The notes under the pieces were generated by a model. The model saw only the letters and a program-made list of their open reading frames with translations, ran no database searches and was not told where the DNA came from. Position numbers and translations under genes: made by a program. Positions 3,432 to 35,771 of a DNA stretch of 64,000 bases are shown here, one piece after another. Location: the sequence record NC_052660.1, one strand, 5' to 3'. The stretch's first letter is position 1. Every line of letters begins with the position of its first letter. This DNA comes from Escherichia phage tuntematon.

Positions 3432-3662
3432 TTAATAAACAATTTCATATTCATGAGGAAAGAAAACATAATCTTCCCCTTCTCGTGCATCTATCTCGTC
3501 CCAAAACCATTCCTGCACTTCCATCATCTTCGAGAATCGCACATGAGCAAGCCCACTGTATTCCACCGTGGCTTCCAACACAAGTGGAAATTTTGCATGT
3601 GCTAATCCTTTATAACCACCATCATTCTCAATACGAATTTTCATGCGTTTCATGTTATGCAT
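3432..3662 (-). CDS. hypothetical protein
   Basis: ORF in operon. Confidence 0.5.
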   Translation of the reverse strand: MHNMKRMKIRIENDGGYKGLAHAKFPLVLEATVEYSGLAHVRFSKMMEVQEWFWDEIDAREGEDYVFFPHEYEIVY

Positions 3663-3864
3663 CCTTCAGACCCTTAATAAAGTAACGACTAACCGGATTC
3701 CCTCGGAAGTATTCGTTAATGAAATCGATAACACACGTTTCACTGCCTGTCACAACGGACGGCTTAAAGTTTTGGAATTCTACAGCTACACGGCTGGCTT
3801 TAGCCAGTGCTTGCACACGTGTAGGATCAGTCAAGAACATTGTGACAGTTTTCAAATTCTTCAT
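3655..3864 (-). CDS. hypothetical protein
   Basis: ORF in operon. Confidence 0.5.
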   Translation of the reverse strand: MKNLKTVTMFLTDPTRVQALAKASRVAVEFQNFKPSVVTGSETCVIDFINEYFRGNPVSRYFIKGLKDA

Positions 3865-3913
3865 TTCATCTCCTCATTAGCTATCTGTTATGTCATCCAC
3901 TATACAGACATTT

Positions 3914-4291
3914 TTATTCAATGCAAGCATTATTTGCATCTTCGATTCTGTCTTTCACCCACTGCAATCTCCCTGGGTTGGTATGACAAGAATGTTTCTT
4001 ACCTTCATCTTCATAACGCAGAAGATCATCATTAAAGGGCAGGAAGGATGATAGCCCAGCACACGTGAATTGCAATTTCATCTCTTCCAGCGTTTTGCTA
4101 CGAACCATTTTGAAATGTTCTATATCTTCTTGCGTAGGCTTTTTCTTTAACATAGTGGTTGCGAGATAATCCATAAGGCAAATACACAAACCAACATTCT
4201 CACGATGCATTGAGGAATGATCTTCCATCCATGCTTTATAGAAGCGAATCAATTCTGCACTGCTCAACGGAACATTTTTACTCTTTTGCAT
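3914..4291 (-). CDS. hypothetical protein (paralog of 108..422), first gene of leftward operon
   Basis: RBS GAGGAGA before ATG at 4291; paralogous to 108..422. Confidence 0.6.
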   Translation of the reverse strand: MQKSKNVPLSSAELIRFYKAWMEDHSSMHRENVGLCICLMDYLATTMLKKKPTQEDIEHFKMVRSKTLEEMKLQFTCAGLSSFLPFNDDLLRYEDEGKKHSCHTNPGRLQWVKDRIEDANNACIE

Positions 4292-4898
4292 GACAATCTC
4301 CTCTCATCGTTAGCCATCTTTCATGGCAATCATCAATCACCAACATCATACGATCAATCTTAGGGAATTACAATCGAATTATCATAGGGGATTCCTATCA
4401 ATTATCCCATATATACCGATTATTTTTGACACCCCACTCTTGTATAAAAAGTAACCCAAAATATCTACGGGGAGAGATTATTTCGACACACCCTGTTTCA
4501 TGGCAATCATGGCAAGAATATCTAATAGAATCAATATCATATGGCAAAAATCATGGCGCATACGTAAGAAGTGCTTAACGCGAATTTTCGGGCCGTCAGG
4601 TCCACGCAGCGACAATTCCCAAATATCATGCGAATGAGAATAATTATCATTCGTATTCAATGACTTATGCAAGGCTTATGCCAACATAGCGACAAGGTGG
4701 GCCACTTGATTATAAATCACACAAACACTTATTTATCAATAGGTTGGCAACTTCATCATATGACGGAACATTGTCAACTAATCCCGCTCATGACAGACGG
4801 ACTATTATTCATATGAGAATGATTATTATTTAAACGTTTATTAACATAAAAACTAAAATAAATCAAGAATTTTCTGATTTTATTTACGTTTAAGAGAA

Positions 4899-5016
4899 GA
4901 TGCTCAACATATCGCTACGCGATAGTATTCGCCCCCGTGATATTTGCTCTTCTCTTAGTGCTCAACATTCCCGCCTGTGGCGGTAACATTTCGCCCCCAA
5001 AATTATTGCTTTTTAT
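4899..5016. repeat. 58-bp tandem direct repeat (2 copies) with internal palindromes
   Basis: tgctcaacat at 4901 and 4959; palindromes tatcgctacgcgata (4910-4924) and ccgcctgtggcgg (4971-4983); ttcgccccc at 4928 and 4990. Confidence 0.7.
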
Positions 5017-5379
5017 TCTATTATGTGCATAGTGTGCAATGTATCGGAATGATGATAATCATCCTCCCATTGCCCCCATAATTATTGCCATGCTAATGAT
5101 TTCATCTTGTAATTACCACAATGATTATTGTTATTGCGCTAATGTTATGATCTTGGTAATTACATATAATGCTAATAATAAGCCAGCGCAATAAGTGTAA
5201 GCGTCATTACGCTTGCAATTATTGCAAGCTACGCAGTAACAAGAAATAACCATCACCGATGGTTATGATTGTTGGGGTGTAGTTGGCTTATTATTAGCTC
5301 GCTATGTGTCCGGCATAGCGTGCTAATGATGATCCTGTGAATGATTCGTTTTGTAATGATTTCATTCAGGCACTATTTT

Positions 5380-5575
5380 GCTAATAGTTGTTATTTTAAT
5401 GGTTTCGTTTGTTATTGTTCGTTAGTTGGTTGTTTTGTCGTGTTATCGTTATCTTGCTTAGTATTCATCATGGTTTGATTGTTTGTCGTTATCAATCATC
5501 TTGCTATTATTCCTTTGATTATGATTAGTTTGCTTATTGTTTTAGGTTGTTGGTTAGTTAGTTGTTGCGAACTAT
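5380..5575. other. strongly strand-skewed GT-rich tract (CA-rich on minus strand)
   Basis: About 200 bp almost devoid of A and C on + strand, with short repeats gttattgtt, cgttatc, ttgctta; no ORF. Confidence 0.7.
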
Positions 5576-5664
5576 TATCAACATTATAGTTATGCACTTA
5601 TATTGCATAGATAAACATGGATAGATGATAATGGTTATCATTGCACTAGAAAGGAGGTAAAAGG

Positions 5665-5763
5665 GTGTTTTTGATGGTTTGTTGTTGGTTGTTGATCGAT
5701 TTTAACCGCTCTAAATGGCTCTCTAACAGCCTGTTACCCTGGGAGGTATGGTTATTCGTTTAA
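5665..5763 (+). CDS. candidate 32-aa Trp-rich small peptide
   Basis: Near-perfect SD AAGGAGGT 5651-5658, GTG 5665 (ATG 5674 in frame), stop 5761-5763; not in ORF track (under 60 aa). Confidence 0.3.
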   Translation: MFLMVCCWLLIDFNRSKWLSNSLLPWEVWLFV

Positions 5764-5847
5764 TGGTTGATTAGCTCGATACCGCGATCTATTCAGTTTT
5801 GTTCTGTGTCGGTTTTTCATAGGCGGAATCTATCAACATTATTCAGG

Positions 5848-5876
5848 CAAAAAGAAAGGGCGCTTAGTGCGCCCCT
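5848..5876 (-). terminator. intrinsic terminator after gene 5891..6310
   Basis: Hairpin gggcgc-ttagt-gcgccc 5858-5874 followed on minus strand by TTTCTTTTT. Confidence 0.7.
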
Positions 5877-5890
5877 TGTTTTGTTGTCAA

Positions 5891-6310
5891 TTATAACGCT
5901 TCATAGATTGAGTAGATCCGGTTCGCCAGGTCATTACGAAAGCGGAATTTTTCATCACGTTTAATCATCAGATCCTTAAAACCGCATTCTTTCAAGGCTT
6001 CATTAACTTTATGGCGGCAAACGTTCATATTATCTTGCGCGTCACCAATAAACTTATTACTGTGATGCATTGCTTTGATCTCTTCCTCTAATACCAGGGC
6101 AACTACACGGATCGGATCAAGCTGATATGCGGTAACATCCATGCGGCATTGTAAACGGCTTTTAACATCGTTTACCGGATATACTGCAACCTCTTCCCCG
6201 TCAACGTTCACGATAACCAATTTACCATCGATTTCGAAGCCTTTGGCGGCGCTACCGTGACAAAAAGCGTTATCGAAGGAGTAAGCTGGATTATTTGATT
6301 TAATGTTCAT
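5891..6310 (-). CDS. hypothetical early protein
   Basis: ORF with RBS AAAGGA; promoter 6356-6384 upstream. Confidence 0.6.
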   Translation of the reverse strand: MNIKSNNPAYSFDNAFCHGSAAKGFEIDGKLVIVNVDGEEVAVYPVNDVKSRLQCRMDVTAYQLDPIRVVALVLEEEIKAMHHSNKFIGDAQDNMNVCRHKVNEALKECGFKDLMIKRDEKFRFRNDLANRIYSIYEAL

Positions 6311-6355
6311 GGTGTTGTCCTTTGTTTCGTTTCGTTGTTTGCTGCCAGTGAGTTA

Positions 6356-6384
6356 AATATAATATAACGCCGATCCCCTGTCAA
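6356..6384 (-). promoter_or_regulatory. sigma70-like early promoter (no leader hairpin)
   Basis: -35 TTGACA (rc 6379-6384) inside inverted repeat atcccct/aggggat, 17-nt spacer, -10 TATATT (rc 6356-6361). Confidence 0.55.
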
Positions 6385-6422
6385 TAGGGGATAGCGCATT
6401 ATTTACATTTCTTTACGTTAAA

Positions 6423-6439
6423 GGGCGCTTGGTGCGCCC
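6423..6439 (-). terminator. terminator-like hairpin after gene 6451..6819
   Basis: gggcgc-ttggt-gcgccc, same hairpin family as 5858 and 12054; weak T-run. Confidence 0.45.
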
Positions 6440-6450
6440 CTTGTATAATC

Positions 6451-6819
6451 TTACTTTGTGCGGTTGTGAACGTTATCGCGTTCAACCATCAGGGCAAGGC
6501 GGATCAGTTGATCAGTTGTATCGCGTAAATTGTCGGGCCATGTTTTACTGTTCCAGCTATCCATGTTTGATTGTATATAGGTTTCAATGGCTTGATCCAT
6601 ATTATCAAACAAGTTTTCCTCCAGGCTCTCGGCTGTTTCACACTGGAAAGCATTAGCGACACTATTAATCAATAAGCAAGCCAGTAAATCAGCATTACGC
6701 CAATTTTTACGGATAGTTTCATCTGTCAGATAACCAACGAGATTAACCTTTGCGCCAGTGGTTGACGTTGCGATCACTTCTTGCGCTTTTTCAAGTGCTT
6801 TAATTGCTGATTTGCTCAT
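6451..6819 (-). CDS. hypothetical early protein
   Basis: ORF-track ORF; RBS AGAGGAAAATAAA. Confidence 0.6.
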   Translation of the reverse strand: MSKSAIKALEKAQEVIATSTTGAKVNLVGYLTDETIRKNWRNADLLACLLINSVANAFQCETAESLEENLFDNMDQAIETYIQSNMDSWNSKTWPDNLRDTTDQLIRLALMVERDNVHNRTK

Positions 6820-9702: not shown

Positions 9703-9873
9703 TTACTCTTCATCGTCGCCGTTATAGTATTCAATGCCGTTTTCATCGGTTACGGTGATGTTAACGCCACCGATAGCAACACGATCACGGGCAAACGTCA
9801 TAGCTTCATTTAAATCTTCAGACCAAAAAATATTGTGACCTTTGCGCGATACATAAAACATAGTCGGGATCAT
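9703..9873 (-). CDS. hypothetical early protein (57 aa)
   Basis: ORF-track ORF 9703..9957 translates the PeSL hairpin; start moved to ATG 28 codons in (MIPTMFYV...). Confidence 0.5.
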   Translation of the reverse strand: MIPTMFYVSRKGHNIFWSEDLNEAMTFARDRVAIGGVNITVTDENGIEYYNGDDEE

Positions 9874-11190: not shown

Positions 11191-11475
11191 TTATGCAGTA
11201 AACAAACCATCATTTACAACGGCGGCGATGATCTCCCGTGCCATTGATTCAGGGAAAGGGGCGCTATAGTCCTGGCTTGTCTCGTCGGTATCAGTGATCC
11301 AATGATAAGCTAACGAGTAAAAGCCTTTACTAACTGTTTTCAGTGAGATGATGATCACTCGGTCAAGCTTATTGGTGAATGTTGCCGTTAATGTGTTACC
11401 CTCCTGCGTCATGTTGGACAAGTAAGCGGGATCATTAATCAGGGAAAACATTAGTACGGTGTTAGCTTTACTCAT
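11191..11475 (-). CDS. hypothetical early protein (94 aa)
   Basis: Start moved 10 codons in (MSKANTVLMF). Confidence 0.55.
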   Translation of the reverse strand: MSKANTVLMFSLINDPAYLSNMTQEGNTLTATFTNKLDRVIIISLKTVSKGFYSLAYHWITDTDETSQDYSAPFPESMAREIIAAVVNDGLFTA

Positions 11476-12023: not shown

Positions 12024-12053
12024 TTTTGTTTATCCTCTACATGTAAAAAGAAA

Positions 12054-12070
12054 GGGCGCTTGGTGCGCCC
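12054..12070 (-). terminator. intrinsic terminator or leader hairpin
   Basis: gggcgc-ttggt-gcgccc followed on minus strand by TTTCTTTTT. Confidence 0.55.
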
Positions 12071-12078
12071 TTGTTATG

Positions 12079-12225
12079 TTAATCCTCTAAATCCATCCAA
12101 TTATATTTGTCACTCTTCCCGCGCTTTGTTTTATTGCGCTTGTCGCCTTTGCGGATCACTTCCTCATTCCAGGCCTTGCGGATCTTGGAAGATTGAATTT
12201 TTTCTGCGCGATTAGATGTGTTCAT
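12079..12225 (-). CDS. candidate 48-aa basic protein
   Basis: Hand-translated MNTSNRAEKIQSSKIRKAWNEEVIRKGDKRNKTKRGKSDKYNWMDLED; RBS AAAGAGGAAAC; not in ORF track. Confidence 0.4.
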   Translation of the reverse strand: MNTSNRAEKIQSSKIRKAWNEEVIRKGDKRNKTKRGKSDKYNWMDLED

Positions 12226-12304: not shown

Positions 12305-12658
12305 TCATTCATAAGAGCAAGCAAGGATCACGCCTGCAATATAAAGCCAATAATTTTCCCTTTCTCGTTGGATTTTATCATCGCTGCTATTCTCTTTAAT
12401 GTATCCCCAGGATGTTAACAAGCGATCAATTTCCCAATATTCGAAAGCGATATTAATGTCTGATGGCAAACCTTGTAACCATGATGCAAGTGCTTTAACA
12501 ATACTATAATTAAAACGTGATTGGTTATCAGGGTACCAGTACTCGGAATTAAAACGGCGCATCAATTCCGCGATCTTCTCTTTTTCGGTTGTAATACCAT
12601 AATCATTAAAATCGATAGCGGCAAGGATGTACTCTTTAATTGCATTTTGTGCTTTCAT
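12305..12658 (-). CDS. hypothetical early protein
   Basis: ORF-track ORF. Confidence 0.6.
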   Translation of the reverse strand: MKAQNAIKEYILAAIDFNDYGITTEKEKIAELMRRFNSEYWYPDNQSRFNYSIVKALASWLQGLPSDINIAFEYWEIDRLLTSWGYIKENSSDDKIQRERENYWLYIAGVILACSYE

Positions 12659-17426: not shown

Positions 17427-17535
17427 CCACTTTTTCAATCTTTTTTATTTTCTTTTTGCTTGCTATATATAAAGGAAAGGGCTATCATCTTTCTACCGCG
17501 CCAACCAGGGCGCACAACAAAGAAAGGGCGACACC

Positions 17536-17802
17536 ATGACAACTACTACATTACACCTTATGCACTCATTGGGCTGGCAAGGCGGCACGGTGCACCAGGT
17601 AGCAAGCGCAACGGGCTTAAAGGTTGAAACCGTTCTCAACCTGGGCGATCATAAAGTGGAAGAGATAGAACATTTTGATCCGTTCGCTGATGGTTATTTA
17701 TGGGCTTGTAATGGCGGCGGGGAAAGCAAGATACCGCCAGGGGCGCGGGGCGATATGTATTTTTGGTTAGGTGTCCTATCCTGGCAAGAAAACAAAAAAT
17801 AA
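17536..17802 (+). CDS. hypothetical protein, divergent from early array
   Basis: ORF-track ORF; candidate promoter TTGCTA-17-TATCAT near 17457-17485. Confidence 0.45.
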   Translation: MTTTTLHLMHSLGWQGGTVHQVASATGLKVETVLNLGDHKVEEIEHFDPFADGYLWACNGGGESKIPPGARGDMYFWLGVLSWQENKK

Positions 17803-17804
17803 TC

Positions 17805-17833
17805 TTGACAAGCCCAGGGATCGGGCTTATACT
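17805..17833 (+). promoter_or_regulatory. orphan sigma70-like promoter facing ORF-free region
   Basis: TTGACA 17805-17810, 17-nt spacer, TATACT 17828-17833; no ORF of 60 aa or more in the 0.8 kb downstream. Confidence 0.55.
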
Positions 17834-18091
17834 GTTTTACATACAGAAGAGGAAGCGCCACCCCACGGCGTAAAGGCGGGGCTAACATACCAGGGGCACT
17901 GGTTGGAAGGTTGATCGCCGGTAGCTCGTCTAAAATAAATTTGTAAAGAAATGTAAAGATAAAAATAATCGCTTGCTTTTGTTGTTGGTTATGTTATTCT
18001 TATTGTATGGCGAGGGGACACGGGAGCGCGAGACAAACACCGCCCCTGCGCGTCATTCTCTAAATGAGATTGATTCTTATTTAATAAAGTA

Positions 18092-18139
18092 AATGATAAT
18101 CATTCTCATTTATAAACTTAAATGCGAATCATTATCATT
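18092..18139. promoter_or_regulatory. two Fur-box-like palindromes
   Basis: aatgataatcatt (18092-18104) equals the 13-bp core of the Fur box consensus GATAATGATAATCATTATC; gaatcattatcatt (18126-18139) is close. Confidence 0.35.
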
Positions 18140-18190
18140 TGCATTTCCATATGAGAACCCTTCTCATTCTCACCTGCATAAAAATTTTTG

Positions 18191-18368
18191 TAAACTTTAA
18201 ATTTTGCTTTTGTACTTTCATTTTTGTAAAAGCAAAAAAACTTTAAATACTGTGGGCGCGCAAAATTTTTAAAATTTTCCTTGACTTTTGAGTTTTGTTT
18301 TGTATCTAACATTTTAAGATAATTTTCCTAAACTTTAAATTTTGGTTTTCAACTTTCACTTTTGTAAA
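18191..18368. repeat. 40-bp direct repeat, 2 copies about 138 bp apart
   Basis: taaactttaaattttgcttttgtactttcatttttgtaaa (18191-18230) vs taaactttaaattttggttttcaactttcacttttgtaaa (18329-18368), about 35/40 identical. Confidence 0.6.
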
Positions 18369-18610
18369 TTCTTAAAAAGTTTAAATAATTTGAGGAATTT
18401 TTGAGATAACAAGTAGTGGTAATTTGAGATAACCTTTAATCTTATTGGCAGACCTTCAGGAACCCACCTAGATCGAATCCTAATGATGCAAACTGAAAAA
18501 GATAAGTGTTTGTATAGGACAAAATAATAGGCTCTCTACGGTGCTGTAGGAGCCTTATTTCTGTGCTACAAAGTGACACCTTTGTTCTAAAAATGAAAAA
18601 AGTTAAAATA

Positions 18611-31921: not shown

Positions 31922-32475
31922 ACACAGGTGTGATTGCCGAAGCCATCCAGAGTTATGGACGCTTTGCTGAAATGTTAGATGTTCCTTATTTAGTGGATGC
32001 AGATATTTTGGCATTCACACTGCCACCTGGCAAAGAAGATGCTCCTTTGGGGCATCCTAATGGGAAGTTTTATGTTGCCAGTGCCGAGCAATCATTCTTG
32101 CAAATGGAAAAGGATGGCTACGAGTTTATCGCTGGTCATCCCTACATGGCCCTGACACCATGTTACCGCACAGAGGAAGTGTTGGATGATTCTCACTTCA
32201 ACATCTTCTTGAAGCTGGAGTTGATTGAGTTCTATCCCAGCTTTGGTGAAGTGAAAGAGTATGCCGAAGAAATGCGATACTTCTTCTGGACCTACTACAA
32301 AGTCCAAACAAGAATTGTAGAAACAGAAATAGGGCTTGACGTGGAAGACATGAATGGTTTAGAATTAGGGTCATTCGGAACAAGATTGTCCCCACAAGGT
32401 CATCCATATATTTATGCAACAGCCATAGCCGAACCTCGTGCATCTATGGCAATTAACAGGAGGAATCATGATTAA
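31918..32475 (+). CDS. hypothetical protein
   Basis: ORF-track ORF. Confidence 0.55.
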   Translation: MNTGVIAEAIQSYGRFAEMLDVPYLVDADILAFTLPPGKEDAPLGHPNGKFYVASAEQSFLQMEKDGYEFIAGHPYMALTPCYRTEEVLDDSHFNIFLKLELIEFYPSFGEVKEYAEEMRYFFWTYYKVQTRIVETEIGLDVEDMNGLELGSFGTRLSPQGHPYIYATAIAEPRASMAINRRNHD

Positions 32476-33856
32476 TAAATTTGCCCGTAAACAGGAAGTT
32501 GCTGAAGCAGCACGTCGCGCTGGTGTGTATGACAAATTGTGTGAAGGTATTGTGAAGGTGTATGGCTGGGAGGGAGAAGATGATCCAACCTGTTCAGGTG
32601 ATTTTGCAATGAACGATATGACCTTCCCATATATTTCCTACAATGCCTCCACTGGTGAAATAAACGGTGTAACCAGCACCAGTGTTGATCGTTATCCAGA
32701 CGCAGAACAAACCACAGGAGGTTACATGTTAGATCTGATTCTTAAGAAATCAGGGTTATTGGGAATCGAAGACGTTTTCGTAGATGCAGATAGTTTATCA
32801 TTAGGAGATGTTGTTAAACTACTGGTAGACTTTAGATTTGCAACAGGTAAAAGCTTCTGGAAGCCAGAAGATGCTGAACGTTTGAAGACAATCGACCCAA
32901 GTATGTATGAACTGCCACAATATAAAGATAAACAATTCCGCAAGGTTATCTTCTTTGATCGTCAAGCAGGTTTAGATGCAATGCATATTGAAGTTGGGGA
33001 TTTACCACGCCCACACTCTGCTGCTACTGGTGATCGCAGCCTTGTAGAAGTCACGGCCCAAGAATTTAAAAATATGTTTGCTGCGAAATACGATGAAGCT
33101 GCGCCTGTGCCAAGTATTGAGGAGCAAGAGGAAGAACAGTTTGTAGCGGAAGATACTGCATTTGAATATCTGCCGAACACAGGTGTTATGCCTTCAGAAG
33201 ATTTCGTGCAGGTTCGCTTCAACAATGGTCAAACAGATGTTGCTAAGGGAACAGTATTCACTTGGAATATCGACAATCTGGAAGAGTGGGCGATTAAAGA
33301 ATACTTCATTCTCCCGCGCACGGCAAAATACAACTATAATAATGGTGGACACCGCCCTTGTGGTGGTCACGTAGAAGTTCTCTTTCGTGACGGAACTACG
33401 GATAGTGGATCGGCTACGCATTTCACTTGGGGTCATGTTGGATATGATCGGGATATTGTTGGTTGGCTTCCAACTAACAACCCTAAACCACGTTACCGTA
33501 AGCCTCGTAAGAAGCCGCCAGTAGGTAAGAAGAGTGTTGTTCGTGTCCTTTACACTACACAGCAGACATACACATTTAAAAATGTGGTAGACGTGCAAGT
33601 GACCGAGGAGCGAGTTTATATCCAATATGATCGTGAAGTTACAGAGGGTATTAAAGAATCGGTTACTACCGAAATTGAAAATAAGCTTGTTATGGCAATC
33701 ATTGTTGAAGAAAGTAAAGTAGAGAACGGTAAAGCCTACACTGTTCGTGATAGCTTCTTGCGTAACATTGATGGAACTTGGGATTATAATGGACACGATG
33801 GGACCGCTGTAAAGAACGGTAAGATCATGGGAAGACAATTCCTCTCCAAACGATAA
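32468..33856 (+). CDS. hypothetical protein (462 aa)
   Basis: Start moved to ATG 32468 behind RBS AGGAGG; basic segment PRYRKPRKKPPVGKK. Confidence 0.55.
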   Translation: MINKFARKQEVAEAARRAGVYDKLCEGIVKVYGWEGEDDPTCSGDFAMNDMTFPYISYNASTGEINGVTSTSVDRYPDAEQTTGGYMLDLILKKSGLLGIEDVFVDADSLSLGDVVKLLVDFRFATGKSFWKPEDAERLKTIDPSMYELPQYKDKQFRKVIFFDRQAGLDAMHIEVGDLPRPHSAATGDRSLVEVTAQEFKNMFAAKYDEAAPVPSIEEQEEEQFVAEDTAFEYLPNTGVMPSEDFVQVRFNNGQTDVAKGTVFTWNIDNLEEWAIKEYFILPRTAKYNYNNGGHRPCGGHVEVLFRDGTTDSGSATHFTWGHVGYDRDIVGWLPTNNPKPRYRKPRKKPPVGKKSVVRVLYTTQQTYTFKNVVDVQVTEERVYIQYDREVTEGIKESVTTEIENKLVMAIIVEESKVENGKAYTVRDSFLRNIDGTWDYNGHDGTAVKNGKIMGRQFLSKR

Positions 33857-33863
33857 AACTTAA

Positions 33864-33886
33864 AGGCGCACTTTGCGCCTTTTTTG
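33864..33886 (+). terminator. rho-independent terminator
   Basis: aggcgca-ctt-tgcgcct then TTTTTT. Confidence 0.8.
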
Positions 33887-33956
33887 ATTTTCCTCAAAGC
33901 TTTTTTCGGTTAGAAGAGGTAGAATAATAGTTCTACTCACAAAATAAGGATTAATA

Positions 33957-35771
33957 ATGAAAGATTTGTACCAAGATGTTTTTTCTTTTTTAGATCGCAC
34001 TTCAGAAACATACACTAGAGAGAATGCAAACAAACCTTCCCACCTCGTTAACACGCATAGGGATCTCTTGGCGGGGATTTTAAGCAAACATATGGCAATG
34101 ATACAGATACTGCCAAAAAACTTGTCAGAATGGCATACAGAAGGTTTTGGACATATTCACGACTTGGATTATCTGCTCTCTCCTCTTACAAACTGTTGTC
34201 TTGTTAATTATCAAGATATGTTAGAAAATGGTTTTAAGATCGGTGCTGCACAGATAGAAAAACCAAAATCTATTGGAGTAGCTACCACAGTGCTAACTCA
34301 AATCATCCAAGCTGTTGCCTCCAGTCAGTATGGAGGTCAAACGTGTGCACACATTGATAAAGGGCTTAGTCCTTATGTTGAAGCTAGTTTCCTTAAAAAC
34401 ATGGAGATAACCAAACGTCGCTACGGTTGTTATGCAAGGAAAGAAGCCCTAGAAATGACAGAACAAGATGTATATGATGCTATGCAAACTCTCTTGTATC
34501 AGGTTAATACTTTAATGAGTGTTAATGGACAATCTCCTTTTATTACAATCAGTATGGGTCTGGATACCTCTGTTTTTGGCAGAATGATCACAGCCAACTA
34601 TCTTAAAGTGCATAGTAACGGTCTAGGCAAAGATCATGTAACGCCTGTATTCCCTAAAGTTATTTTCTTTTTACAAGAAGGTGTTAACATGAAACCTAGT
34701 GATCCTAACTATGACCTTAAGCAACAAGCTTTGGCATGTTGTGCTGATCGTATTTATCCAGATTTTATTTCTGTTCCTTTGAACAAAGAAGTTACGGGAT
34801 CAGCAGATGGTACTGTTACGAGTATGGGTTGTCGTTCCTTTTTGTCGTACTATGCCACCGAACAAGGAGAAAAATATGATGGACGATTCAACCTTGGAGT
34901 AGTTTCTATCAACTTGCCTCTGATTGCTGCGGAAGCGAGAAGTAAAGGAGAATCTTTCACCTACCTCCTTAATAAACATATGGAGATAGCCTACGATGCT
35001 CACATGCTACGTGTAAACCGTATTAGACATACCAAAGCATCTGAAAACCCTATTCTTTTCATGGAAGGGGCTTTAGCGCGTTTAAATGCCAATGATGAAA
35101 TTGGTGTTTTGTTTGAAGATGGTTATGCTTCTATTAGTATTGGTTATGTAGGTCTTGCCGAAGCTTTGGAAATCCTTTATCCAGAAGAAAAAGATAAAAA
35201 GGAACTTGGTAAAAGCATTCTGCAACATATGAAAGATGTGTGTGCTGTGTTTAAAGAACGATCTAAGCTGGCGTTTAGTCTCTATGGAACTCCAGCAGAA
35301 TCCTTGTGCTATAAGTTTGCAACAGCTTTAAATAAAAAATACCCAGGTTTGGTAGAAAGAGACTATCTTACTAACTCTTTTCATCAACCTGTATGGTTGG
35401 TAACAAATCCTTTTGAAAAATGGGATTATGAAGCAGGTTTTGCACAGATTAGTAATGGTGGTAACATAAGTTATGTCGAAACACCAAACTTAAAGAATAA
35501 CTTAGAAGCTTTGGAGACTTTAGTAGACTACGCTTATGAACATATTCACTATTTTGGTATTAATCAGCCCGTGGATCAATGCTTTAAGTGTGGTTTTCAT
35601 GGAGAATTTAAGGCAACGGCTAAAGGGTTTGAGTGTCCTGATTGTGGCAACCATGAAGAAGAAACTATTTCTGTAGTTAGACGTGTATCAGGGTATCTTT
35701 CTGCCCCTAATTCACGGCCTTACAACAAAGGTAAAATGCAGGAAGTTTTGCAAAGGGAGAAACATCTTTGA
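33957..35771 (+). CDS. nrdD: anaerobic ribonucleoside-triphosphate reductase (class III)
   Basis: C-terminal glycyl-radical motif RVSGYL preceded by Zn-ribbon CFKCGFHG...CPDCG; 604 aa. Confidence 0.9.
   Translation: MKDLYQDVFSFLDRTSETYTRENANKPSHLVNTHRDLLAGILSKHMAMIQILPKNLSEWHTEGFGHIHDLDYLLSPLTNCCLVNYQDMLENGFKIGAAQIEKPKSIGVATTVLTQIIQAVASSQYGGQTCAHIDKGLSPYVEASFLKNMEITKRRYGCYARKEALEMTEQDVYDAMQTLLYQVNTLMSVNGQSPFITISMGLDTSVFGRMITANYLKVHSNGLGKDHVTPVFPKVIFFLQEGVNMKPSDPNYDLKQQALACCADRIYPDFISVPLNKEVTGSADGTVTSMGCRSFLSYYATEQGEKYDGRFNLGVVSINLPLIAAEARSKGESFTYLLNKHMEIAYDAHMLRVNRIRHTKASENPILFMEGALARLNANDEIGVLFEDGYASISIGYVGLAEALEILYPEEKDKKELGKSILQHMKDVCAVFKERSKLAFSLYGTPAESLCYKFATALNKKYPGLVERDYLTNSFHQPVWLVTNPFEKWDYEAGFAQISNGGNISYVETPNLKNNLEALETLVDYAYEHIHYFGINQPVDQCFKCGFHGEFKATAKGFECPDCGNHEEETISVVRRVSGYLSAPNSRPYNKGKMQEVLQREKHL

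Follow-up and report, generated by a model that had tools for sequence, protein, structure and literature searches.

A long non-coding region of a Phapecoctavirus phage as the probable junction of its genome ends, with putative Fur-type operators

What is the role of a 1.6-kb stretch without apparent genes in the genome of Escherichia phage tuntematon (NC_052660.1)? The window, that is, the whole stretch of 64,000 nt that was analysed, comes from a Phapecoctavirus (a phAPEC8-like myovirus), and the region at 4292-5890 is flanked by the minus-strand genes 3914-4291 and 5891-6310, whose proteins are without known function. It is 97% identical to the corresponding region of Escherichia phage UP17 and about 98% identical to that of phAPEC8, and it carries no annotation in nearly all of 123 related phage records. 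A previous reading of the letters alone (the sequence-only reading) had stated that no ORF of 60 aa or more is present. The gene-free gap was confirmed, but the strict claim was not, as a 64-aa minus-strand ORF with a TTG start was found at 4478-4672; it spans a boundary of the terminal repeat described below, and the alignment has many indels there. ARAGORN gave no tRNA or tmRNA. No Rfam 15 family reached the gathering score across the whole window, and a scan of 3500-6800 at E values up to 1 returned just two chance-level matches (E about 0.2). A metagenome scan with a 16-mer yielded chance matches for the most part, with few true relatives usable. Transcript maps, Fur boxes, expression data and analyses of the non-coding region in these phages were absent from the literature searched.

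The region was compared with the record ends of related phages. We conclude, with a probability of about 85%, that it is the junction of both ends of the linear Phapecoctavirus genome and that the assembly has collapsed the terminal repeat to one copy. The genome ends were taken here from the way in which records of relatives with 95-97% identity were deposited, together with a single published sentence. The records of Schickermooser, Mt1B1_P17 and BI-EHEC contain exact terminal duplications (329, 328 and 328 bp, respectively) that map to 4576- or 4577-4904 of the window. These three independent records agree at both repeat boundaries except for a 1-nt difference in the exact cut, indicating fixed, non-permuted ends. 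Moreover, many relatives' records begin or end within 4292-5890, and others were opened at arbitrary points. A packaging region, which had been offered as a fallback interpretation, was thus borne out, with the genome ends and a 328-bp direct terminal repeat falling inside. The 328-bp repeat of Schickermooser has been published (PMC6563267), and Stephanstirmvirinae genomes are described as ending in direct terminal repeats (PMC12695924). The repeat is already published for the genus; its inner anatomy appears to be new. If the region is the genome-end junction, the small ORFs that gene callers have invented here are explained.

Both boundaries of the repeat were found on one oriented motif, GCT/YAAC, in which the slash marks the cut (Table 1). 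The left copy is kept in six lineages, and the record of the Justusliebigvirus PD06 was opened exactly at the homologous motif, ...GGCT/CAACAAAT. At the right boundary, two 58-bp tandem units with inner palindromes had been described. The palindromes are there, but the units are identical at only 40 of 63 aligned columns. Tandem Repeats Finder reported no tandem array at 4899-5016, and a repeat search in the same interval recovered the TTCGCCCCC part alone, at a spacing of 62. The units are a duplicated right-hand cut site, each copy with the motif, a short hairpin and TTCGCCCCC. In unit 1, the stems differ between lineages and the hairpin is retained. The copy number among relatives is one or two: unit 2 is missing from phAPEC8, ETEC-TG, PsgM04F, phiWec186 and phiWec188, and Citrobacter phage Tr1 has two copies. 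We propose that the phage terminase would cut replicated concatemers at the two GCT/YAAC copies. Cutting at both would therefore leave the repeat at both ends of every packaged genome, as in T7-type phages. A terminase gene was absent from the large ORFs of the 64-kb window.

Table 1. Features of the region at 4292-5890, in window coordinates. A dot marks features without strand; promoters and Fur-type sites are predictions.
Feature	Position	Strand	Description
Left flank, repeat to first gene of leftward operon	4292-4576	-	sigma-70-like sites, 24-bp tandem unit, CATGGCAA repeats
Sigma-70-like site TTGTAA-17-TATGAT	4373 to 4345	-	predicted promoter; hexamers kept in divergent relatives
24-bp tandem unit	4357-4406		within left flank
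Sigma-70-like site	4448 to 4419	-	predicted promoter
Sigma-70-like site TTGCCA-18-AATAAT	4506 to 4477	-	predicted promoter
Left boundary motif AGTGCT/TAACGCG	4570-4582	+	genome end 4576/4577, as placed by the record ends of Schickermooser, Mt1B1_P17 and BI-EHEC
Direct terminal repeat	4577-4904	.	one collapsed copy in window, both arms flanking
Fur-box-like palindrome 1, TGAGAATAATTATCA	4635-4649	.	1 mismatch to 7-1-7 Fur site
Fur-box-like palindrome 2, TGAGAATGATTATTA	4814-4828	.	
Palindrome AAATCAAGAATTTTCTGATTT	4860-4880	.	conserved; just inside right end of repeat; present in muut too
Right boundary unit 1	4899-4956	+	GATGCT/CAACAT (genome end 4904/4905), hairpin ATCGC-TAC-GCGAT (4911-4923), TTCGCCCCC
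Right boundary unit 2 (duplicate)	4957-5016	+	AGTGCTCAACAT, hairpin CCGCC-TGT-GGCGG (4971-4983), TTCGCCCCC
Structured element, 53 base pairs	5171-5320	+	14-bp closing helix, three inner helices, 3' hairpin
Strand-asymmetric tract, C-poor, T-rich	5337-5600	+	encloses 5380-5575
Promoter-like site TTGCAT (5603-5608)-18-GATAAT (5627-5632)	5603-5640	+	predicted promoter, overlapped by palindrome 3
Fur-box-like palindrome 3, TGATAATGGTTATCA	5626-5640		overlaps GATAAT of promoter-like site
Fixed-length non-coding unit	5640-5885	+	invariant core TTAGCTCGATACCGCG (5771-5786)
32-codon ORF	5665-5763	+	probably not a gene
Bidirectional intrinsic terminator	5855-5877	.	ends minus-strand gene 5891-6310; invariant in alignments

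On the left of the repeat, the description of the region as a control region upstream of the leftmost operon partly fits. It applies to 285 bp carrying minus-strand sigma-70-like sites, one of which is conserved. These predicted host-type promoters would start the leftward operon from the left end of the genome.

On the right, perfect hairpins had been noted at 5190-5260. They are present in the sequence and proved to be parts of a larger fold of 53 base pairs. In the alignment of 5171-5320, 98.8% of cells were paired and 13 of the 53 pairs changed on both sides. This number of covarying pairs was reached by 0 of 500 shuffles, and slid controls gave at most 5 such pairs. The energy of the single-sequence fold was -76.8 kcal/mol (z -9.9) on the + strand versus -60.9 kcal/mol on the minus strand, and that of the alignment fold was -65.7 versus -50.4 kcal/mol. 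The variable pairs go via G.U on the + strand, with one A.C cell only. The + strand would carry the fold, either in an RNA or in single-stranded DNA. A covariance model search showed one copy per genome, with a weak match in L107 and no match in Av-05, and no Rfam family was matched by the element. Directly upstream of it, no hexamer pair is conserved across lineages, and no convincing promoter was found there, so that the RNA form of the element is hypothetical. The comparative evidence for the 53-pair element is strong, and the element would represent a structured nucleic-acid motif of a new kind.

The GT-skewed tract reported at 5380-5575 is real, and no other part of the 64-kb window is as poor in A+C (26%, against a mean of 48.9% with an sd of 4.7). 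The description as almost lacking A and C went too far, with A at 16.3%, C at 9.7%, G at 20.9% and T at 53.1%. C is depleted on the same strand in PD06, Tr1 and Klebsiella phage phi1_175008, and the muut tract reads likewise; the tract sequence itself is not alignable between genera (35% identity to muut). A check for DNA curvature revealed no helical phasing of its A/T tracts. This composition could be read as part of a Rho-dependent insulator. Leftward read-through past the intrinsic terminator (5877 to 5855) would enter an untranslated, G-poor and unstructured stretch from 5575 to 5380, where Rho would load; RNA polymerase would then pause at the hairpins from 5320 to 5170 and be released before the terminal repeat and the next operon. 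An RNA read leftward from the tract would have 21% C and 10% G and little structure, its minimum free energy being just -19.9 kcal/mol over 264 nt. In other genera this strand is likewise depleted of G, even though the sequence has not been retained, and a terminator-like hairpin lies on the minus strand at 5266-5246. Moreover, the flanking genes are all on the minus strand, so that read-through in concatemers would reach the next operon. However, a C content of 21% is about the genome average; the leftward strand is mainly A-rich and without C enrichment, and for this reason it does not have the C-rich character of a Rho-dependent terminator. A strong, invariant intrinsic terminator lies directly upstream, and the hairpin cluster evolves as a + strand structure whose G.U intermediates would be A.C mismatches in a leftward RNA. 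Composition alone also does not account for the Fur-type sites or the fixed-length unit. We consider the insulator unlikely as the explanation of the region. It could coexist with the genome-end reading, and Rho loading by the tract is possible as a role secondary to the genome-end identity.

Three palindromes resembling Fur boxes occupy syntenic positions across the subfamily and stay put where the surrounding sequence has diverged. Palindrome 1 is kept in Phapecoctavirus relatives, phiWec186 and muut. At palindrome 2, 18 nt (4813-4830) are invariant in eight phages, though the repeat is only 65% identical overall to that of phiWec186, and in muut the 7-1-7 match at that place is perfect. The boxes inside the repeat lie 58-66 nt from the left cut and 83-90 nt from the right cut, in the window as well as in phiWec186 and muut. 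The Fur consensus was taken from a published source (PMC4506495). Six matches to TGATAATNATTATCA with up to two mismatches were found in the window versus 0.99 expected, three of them in the region and two at 18.1 kb. Those at 4635, 4814 and 5626 deviate from TGATAATNATTATCA at 1-2 positions and agree with GATAATGATAATCATTATC at 14-16 of 19. Box 3 overlaps a predicted promoter; boxes 1 and 2 are without a promoter conserved across lineages. The boxes were also considered as the repeated motif annotated in phAPEC8 by PHIRE, which was ruled out because the PHIRE motif is GTAGGGCGGCAATGGTGCCG. Judged by their match to the consensus, the putative operators would probably bind host Fur. Such binding would therefore couple transcription or end processing to the iron status of the cell. 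A phage-encoded protein could be the user of these palindromes instead of Fur. The phage also encodes iron-dependent ribonucleotide reductases.

The promoter-like site at box 3 is followed by a non-coding unit of fixed length. The TTGCAT-18-NANAAT hexamers and their spacing are kept, with variable spacer sequence, in Phapecoctavirus, Justusliebigvirus and Av-05. The distance from box to core is 145-146 nt and that from core to terminator 85-86 nt in five lineages including Av-05, and the promoter-like site and the unit also occur in a Vequintavirinae phage. The unit may give rise to an RNA of about 245 nt. Outside Phapecoctavirus, the T-run on its + strand is poor.

Taken together with the fold at 5171-5320, the unit suggests another explanation, in which the region holds non-coding RNA genes and its position at the genome end is incidental. 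These would encode one or two + strand RNAs, namely a structured one of about 155 nt (5171-5320), perhaps extended by the C-poor tail, and a Fur-repressed one of about 245 nt (about 5640-5885), acting in trans on host or phage targets. The covariation and + strand preference of the fold are in line with such genes, as are the conserved promoter-like site, the overlapping operator and the fixed terminator distance in three clades; in muut and Av-05, the unit is kept beside unrelated neighbour genes. On the other hand, no promoter for the structured element was found, and the 245-nt unit showed no conserved fold, with weak RNAalifold pairs, almost no covariation and a single-sequence z of -0.49 versus shuffled sequences. 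Neither element belongs to an Rfam family, BLAST (5,426 E. coli genomes) gave no meaningful homolog of the unit or host complementarity, and the searched literature holds no expression data. We regard the RNA genes as a serious possibility but do not favour them.

The same unit contains the 32-codon Trp-rich ORF that had been pointed out for its near-perfect Shine-Dalgarno sequence. The frame is present as described, with a GTG start, four Trp and AAAGGAGG 7 nt ahead of the start, and it is unbroken here as in phAPEC8, UP17 and anhysbys. However, it is not conserved: codon 18 is changed from TGG to TAG in four of eight relatives (ETEC-TG, PsgM04F, phiWec186 and phiWec188), and the start and stop codons are gone in phiWec186 and phiWec188. 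Comparison with other genera showed 1-nt indels, and the substitutions have no codon-position pattern. The ORF was rejected as a gene on conservation, and its translation as a small protein is extremely improbable.

A replication origin was also considered. Transcription over the asymmetric tract would separate the two DNA strands or leave behind an R-loop, with the + strand hairpins serving as a priming signal on the displaced strand and the short repeats binding an initiator. In T7, promoters beside the terminal repeats are associated with secondary origins. Several features are consistent with an origin here: the strong strand asymmetry kept across genera, the + strand fold of single-strand type, short repeats in clusters (TCAACAT four times, GCTAATRWT five times and CATGGCAA four times), and a T7-like primase-helicase and a Pol I-type polymerase encoded by the phage. 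However, there is no adjacent initiator gene, the flanking proteins being without known function; the tract lacks helical phasing, reading of the sequence revealed no DnaA-box array, and none of the analyses is origin-specific. An origin is quite improbable.

Returning to the genome-end junction, the right ~1 kb (4905-5890) would be a non-coding right-end module consisting of the structured element, the C-poor tract, the promoter-like site with its Fur-type operator and the ~245-nt unit up to the terminator. The order of elements recurs in lineages of the subfamily: cut motif, box or boxes, cut motif in one or two copies, structured element, C-poor tract, box, core and terminator. Compared with the window, the right arm of phiWec186, including the gene 5891-6310, is 90-96% identical and the left side 48-65% identical, indicating a mosaic break near 5165. 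Mosaic inheritance is thus part of the reason why Phapecoctavirus genomes are nearly identical over 5166-5890. Because of this break in phiWec186, high within-genus identity of 5166-5890 is not by itself a sign of selection.

We tentatively suggest that the virulent coliphages of the Stephanstirmvirinae would wire host Fur into this genome-end module, a proposal that we hold to be doubtful at present. Beside a 155-nt fold with its C-less tail, the module would carry operators in the repeat and at the promoter of a ~245-nt non-coding RNA, the last element being shared by a Vequintavirinae phage. If the proposal is true, a response to iron would be expected in early transcription, in the processing of ends, or in iron uptake by the host, the last of these because replicating phage DNA would titrate Fur. 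Virulent phages of this kind are used in therapy studies, and Fur-type operators conserved at their genome ends would let a phage sense the host's iron state in a new way. Placing the ends at 4576/4577 and 4904/4905 on GCT/YAAC allows Phapecoctavirus and Justusliebigvirus genomes to be opened and compared consistently. For large virulent phages whose terminal repeats are short, the end module also provides a testable handle on how terminase finds and duplicates the repeat and on what the adjoining long conserved non-coding DNA does.

The region was compared with known end systems. It resembles the concatemer junction of T7/T3-type phages in its short direct terminal repeat and defined, non-permuted ends, in the host-type promoters, here predicted, just inside the left end, and in the non-coding, repeat-rich DNA on either side of the repeat. 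For T7, it has been proposed that a hairpin beside the repeat is formed as an intermediate during processing. Packaging recognition sequences of T7/T3-type phages lie near the termini, and processing begins at the right side of the junction (PMC3276506). Unlike these phages, the present one is a 150-kb myovirus, one oriented motif is common to both of its boundaries and is sometimes duplicated on the right, and Fur-type palindromes in the repeat, a 53-pair covarying fold and a C-poor tract are present. Moreover, its one conserved promoter-like site points away from the repeat, not through it. To our knowledge, no phage RNA polymerase is encoded by this myovirus. In lambda cos (cosN, cosB and an IHF site), a cut site is combined with a one-sided array of short protein-binding repeats and a host-protein site at a set distance. 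The putative Fur-type boxes are similar in the distances that they keep from the two cuts. Lambda differs in having 12-nt cohesive ends and IHF as the host factor, in contrast to the 328-bp repeat and putative Fur sites here.

The left-terminal non-coding region of T5 is associated with an injection stop signal, 10-kb repeats and two-step DNA transfer. It is likewise a non-coding stretch rich in repeats and palindromes near a genome end, as envisaged by the injection-control alternative of the sequence-only reading; there is no sign of stepwise injection here, and no sequence similarity to T5 was seen. Rho-dependent terminators, in which a rut site is followed by pause sites, share the long, untranslated, G-poor and unstructured leftward stretch followed by stable hairpins. 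Unlike in those terminators, the stretch has no excess of C, an efficient intrinsic terminator precedes it, and the hairpins favour the opposite strand. The predicted boxes differ from the Fur operators of E. coli K-12 (fepB-entC, fepD-entS and fepA-fes) in their location in the terminal repeat and non-coding end of a virulent phage, with no iron-uptake gene downstream. Their agreement with the consensus equals or exceeds that of the best sites in these three promoter regions, and one of them overlaps a -10-like hexamer, the usual position of a repressor.

Dozens of phAPEC8-like coliphages, of the genus Phapecoctavirus in the subfamily Stephanstirmvirinae, matched the stretch at 4292-5890 with 95-99% identity over most of its length, UP17 being the best match (97%). 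Annotation is absent from this stretch in almost all related records, and in records with uncurated gene calling both of its strands are filled with "hypothetical proteins" of 30-60 codons. Strictly, the claim that it lacks ORFs of at least 60 aa fails, as the minus strand carries a mechanical 64-codon ORF with a TTG start (4478-4672). Records labelled as Campylobacter, Pseudomonas, Acinetobacter and Klebsiella phages showed 81-97% identity to the coliphage region, and some of these host labels need caution.

A sensitive search showed that many relatives' records start or stop inside the stretch. A 328-bp terminal repeat was reported for Schickermooser by Korf et al. (PMC6563267), and a later paper describes direct terminal repeats at the ends of Stephanstirmvirinae genomes (PMC12695924). 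Both ends of three records were compared, giving exact end duplications of 329 bp (Schickermooser), 328 bp (Mt1B1_P17) and 328 bp (BI-EHEC). All three mapped to 4576/4577-4904, indicating that the assembly of the window runs across the junction and has the repeat collapsed to one copy. Moreover, gene 1 of Schickermooser (its own numbering) is a homolog of 3914-4291; therefore, the leftward operon is the first operon at the left end of the genome, and the right end finishes in a non-coding tail, 4905-5890. We give a probability of about 0.85 to the reading that the genome ends of a phage with direct terminal repeats meet in this region. For this genus, the terminal repeat itself had been published before. 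To our knowledge, the cut motif shared by its boundaries and the variable duplication beside it, a covarying 53-pair element, a conserved strand-biased tract, and putative Fur-type operators with a fixed-length unit appear to be new, and we infer their functions.

Features of the genome-end region and its flanks (window positions)
Feature	Position	Strand	Remarks
Left flanking gene	3914-4291	-	Block of small genes, function unknown
Fur-type box 1, TGAGAATAATTATCA	4635		1-2 mismatches to TGATAATNATTATCA
Fur-type box 2, TGAGAATGATTATTA	4814		1-2 mismatches to TGATAATNATTATCA
Closing helix, 14 bp	5171-5184 with 5285-5298	+	Alignment fold
Long hairpin	5188-5225	+	Alignment fold
Helix around ATAACCATC/GATGGTTAT hairpin	Inside structured element	+	Alignment fold
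Separate 3′ hairpin	5300-5320	+	Alignment fold
Fur-type box 3, TGATAATGGTTATCA	5626		1-2 mismatches to TGATAATNATTATCA
Bidirectional terminator	5855-5877		Ends right-hand gene block
Right flanking gene	5891-6310	-	Block of small genes, function unknown

The three perfect hairpins of the sequence-only reading had been placed correctly, and they are parts of one structured element (5171-5320). Four lineages contributed 13 distinct phages to an alignment over 5166-5336, which supported a fold of 53 pairs. Paired cells amounted to 98.8%, and 13 pairs were changed on both sides, with at most 5 such pairs in slid controls; 0 of 500 shuffles reached the observed pairing/covariation values. At its distal part, the closing helix occurs in four compensated versions (AAGCC/GGCTT, AACGC/GCGTT, ACCGC/GCGGT and AACAC/GTGTT). 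The folding energy was -76.8 kcal/mol for the + strand versus -60.9 for the minus strand with the single sequence, and -65.7 versus -50.4 kcal/mol with the alignment. G.U intermediates were present on the + strand at no fewer than 7 variable-pair positions, with one A.C cell. This strand preference and the G.U passage favour a single-stranded form of the + strand, RNA or DNA, and speak against a leftward RNA or a palindrome that simply binds protein. A search with a covariance model detected one copy of the element per genome and no copy in the Vequintavirinae phage Av-05. No matching family was found in Rfam, and no conserved promoter was found upstream of the element.

No other 196-nt stretch of the window is as poor in A+C as the adjoining tract (5380-5575; 26% versus a 64-kb mean of 49%), but the description of the tract as almost devoid of A and C was too strong (A 16%, C 10%, G 21%, T 53%). 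Its near-invariance within Phapecoctavirus is weak evidence because phiWec186 has a mosaic break near 5165: identity to the window is 90-96% to the right, including gene 5891-6310, versus 48-65% to the left, including the terminal repeat and gene 3914-4291. The tract could not be aligned with Justusliebigvirus (35% identity), yet the corresponding strand is C-poor there (3-7% C over 250-400 nt) and likewise in Tr1 and a Klebsiella phage, so composition is kept and not sequence. Helical phasing was looked for in the tract and not found. The tract had been proposed as a Rho-loading site on a leftward transcript, which would be compatible with a genome end, and its leftward reading fits this in being G-poor and almost unstructured (-19.9 kcal/mol over 264 nt). 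However, C is not enriched in that transcript, an invariant intrinsic terminator lies just upstream of the tract, and the structured element prefers the opposite strand; Rho loading is possible but not likely.

The 32-codon ORF with its Shine-Dalgarno sequence is present as claimed. As a gene it was rejected: codon 18 is TAG in four of eight Phapecoctavirus sequences, start and stop codons are lost in two of the eight, and 1-nt indels break the frame relative to other genera. What is conserved instead is TTGCAT, 18 variable nt and a -10-like NANAAT forming the left half of box 3. A core, TTAGCTCGATACCGCG, follows box 3 after 145-146 nt, and the terminator follows the core after 85-86 nt. This layout was found in Phapecoctavirus, Justusliebigvirus, a Klebsiella phage and Av-05, with unrelated neighbouring genes, and is that of a repressor-controlled promoter predicted to drive a + strand RNA of ~245 nt. 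The RNA reading is weakened because neither a conserved fold nor a host homolog was found for the ~245-nt unit and its + strand T-run is weak outside Phapecoctavirus; the unit may act either as RNA or as DNA.

In muut (Justusliebigvirus), the unit's 3′ part occurs a second time in diverged form (63% identity), at 4223-4411, ~1.2 kb deeper into the right arm in a separate intergenic gap. Av-05 has a 1.9-kb gene-free gap (222-2138) ending in the same box, core and terminator unit; upstream of the unit come a tract rich in CA rather than GT (~650-950) and a cluster of long hairpins that differs from the window's (~1250-1700). Near-copies of the window's terminator sequence (5844-5885) stand behind other minus-strand genes at 12040-12080 and 6420-6444 (88% and 96% identity). 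The phAPEC8 stem-loop GTAGGGCGGCAATGGTGCCGCC, annotated as "PHIRE promoters", is repeated at 9798-9817, 11213-11232, 12063-12082 and 12444-12463, downstream of host-type promoters in the right-arm gene block, and resembles the hairpin of a common 5′ leader more than it does a promoter.

A repeated motif from a repeat search of the region matches the Fur operator. At the mismatch level of the three boxes, the window contains 6 matches to the consensus TGATAATNATTATCA (PMC4506495) versus 0.99 expected, and two of the remaining ones cluster at 18.1 kb. By equal measure, the best E. coli K-12 sites at fepA-fes, fepD-entS and fepB-entC have 3, 3 and 1 mismatches, compared with 1-2 in the phage boxes. 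The boxes hold position where the surrounding sequence has diverged: box 2 lies inside 18 invariant nt of a terminal repeat 65% identical overall to that of phiWec186, and muut has a perfect site there. Measured inward from the cuts, the boxes sit at 58-66 nt (left) and 83-90 nt (right) in the window as well as in phiWec186 and muut. Host Fur would be the simplest candidate binder; no report of Fur-type sites was found in the literature on these phages. Two ribonucleotide reductases are encoded in the window as well (32438-35771), one of them an NrdD-like anaerobic enzyme. Both depend on iron, which may be why the phage would sense it. Minus-strand genes also flank a second gap free of genes (~1.1 kb, 17440-18610). 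This gap carries a dense cluster of Fur-box-like palindromes (18065-18171, including TGATAATCATTCTCA and TGCGAATCATTATCA), a + strand promoter sequence close to consensus (TTGACA-17-TATACT at 17805-17833) and, at 18190-18400, repeated "aaactttaaatttt" units.

The left end of the terminal repeat falls within AGTGCT/TAACGCG and the right end within GATGCT/CAACAT (slash, genome end). Taking the 329 bp of Schickermooser, the two cuts fall in exact register inside GCT/YAAC, and both boundaries use this one motif. A third copy, AGTGCTCAACAT, opens the second of two "58-bp units" (4899-4956 and 4957-5016), and the record of PD06 (Justusliebigvirus) opens exactly at ...GGCT/CAACAAAT. Both motifs, spaced 321-412 bp apart, were found in muut, Citrobacter phage Tr1, Klebsiella phage phi1_175008 and an IMG/VR contig; Tr1 too has two right-hand copies. 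Common to the two "58-bp units" are a 12-nt head, a TTCGCCCCC block and a tail; identity extends to only 40 of 63 aligned columns, and Tandem Repeats Finder did not call them. The right-hand unit is present in one or two copies among close relatives; therefore, its duplication is dispensable. In most lineages a 4-6-bp hairpin directly follows CAACAY, with differing stems (ATCGC, CCGCC, AGCGC, GCCCAC and ATCC). Nearby, a TGCA-flanked 11-bp segment (5026-5036) occurs in either orientation among relatives, as GCATAGTGTGC in the window and UP17 and as the reverse complement GCACACTATGC in phAPEC8 and anhysbys, which looks like a small inversion. Judging from the end positions, terminase would cut at the GCT/YAAC motifs. 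T7 and T3 offer an analogy for a terminase acting at motifs by the genome ends: their recognition sequences are found close to the termini, and the junction is processed from its right side first (PMC3276506).
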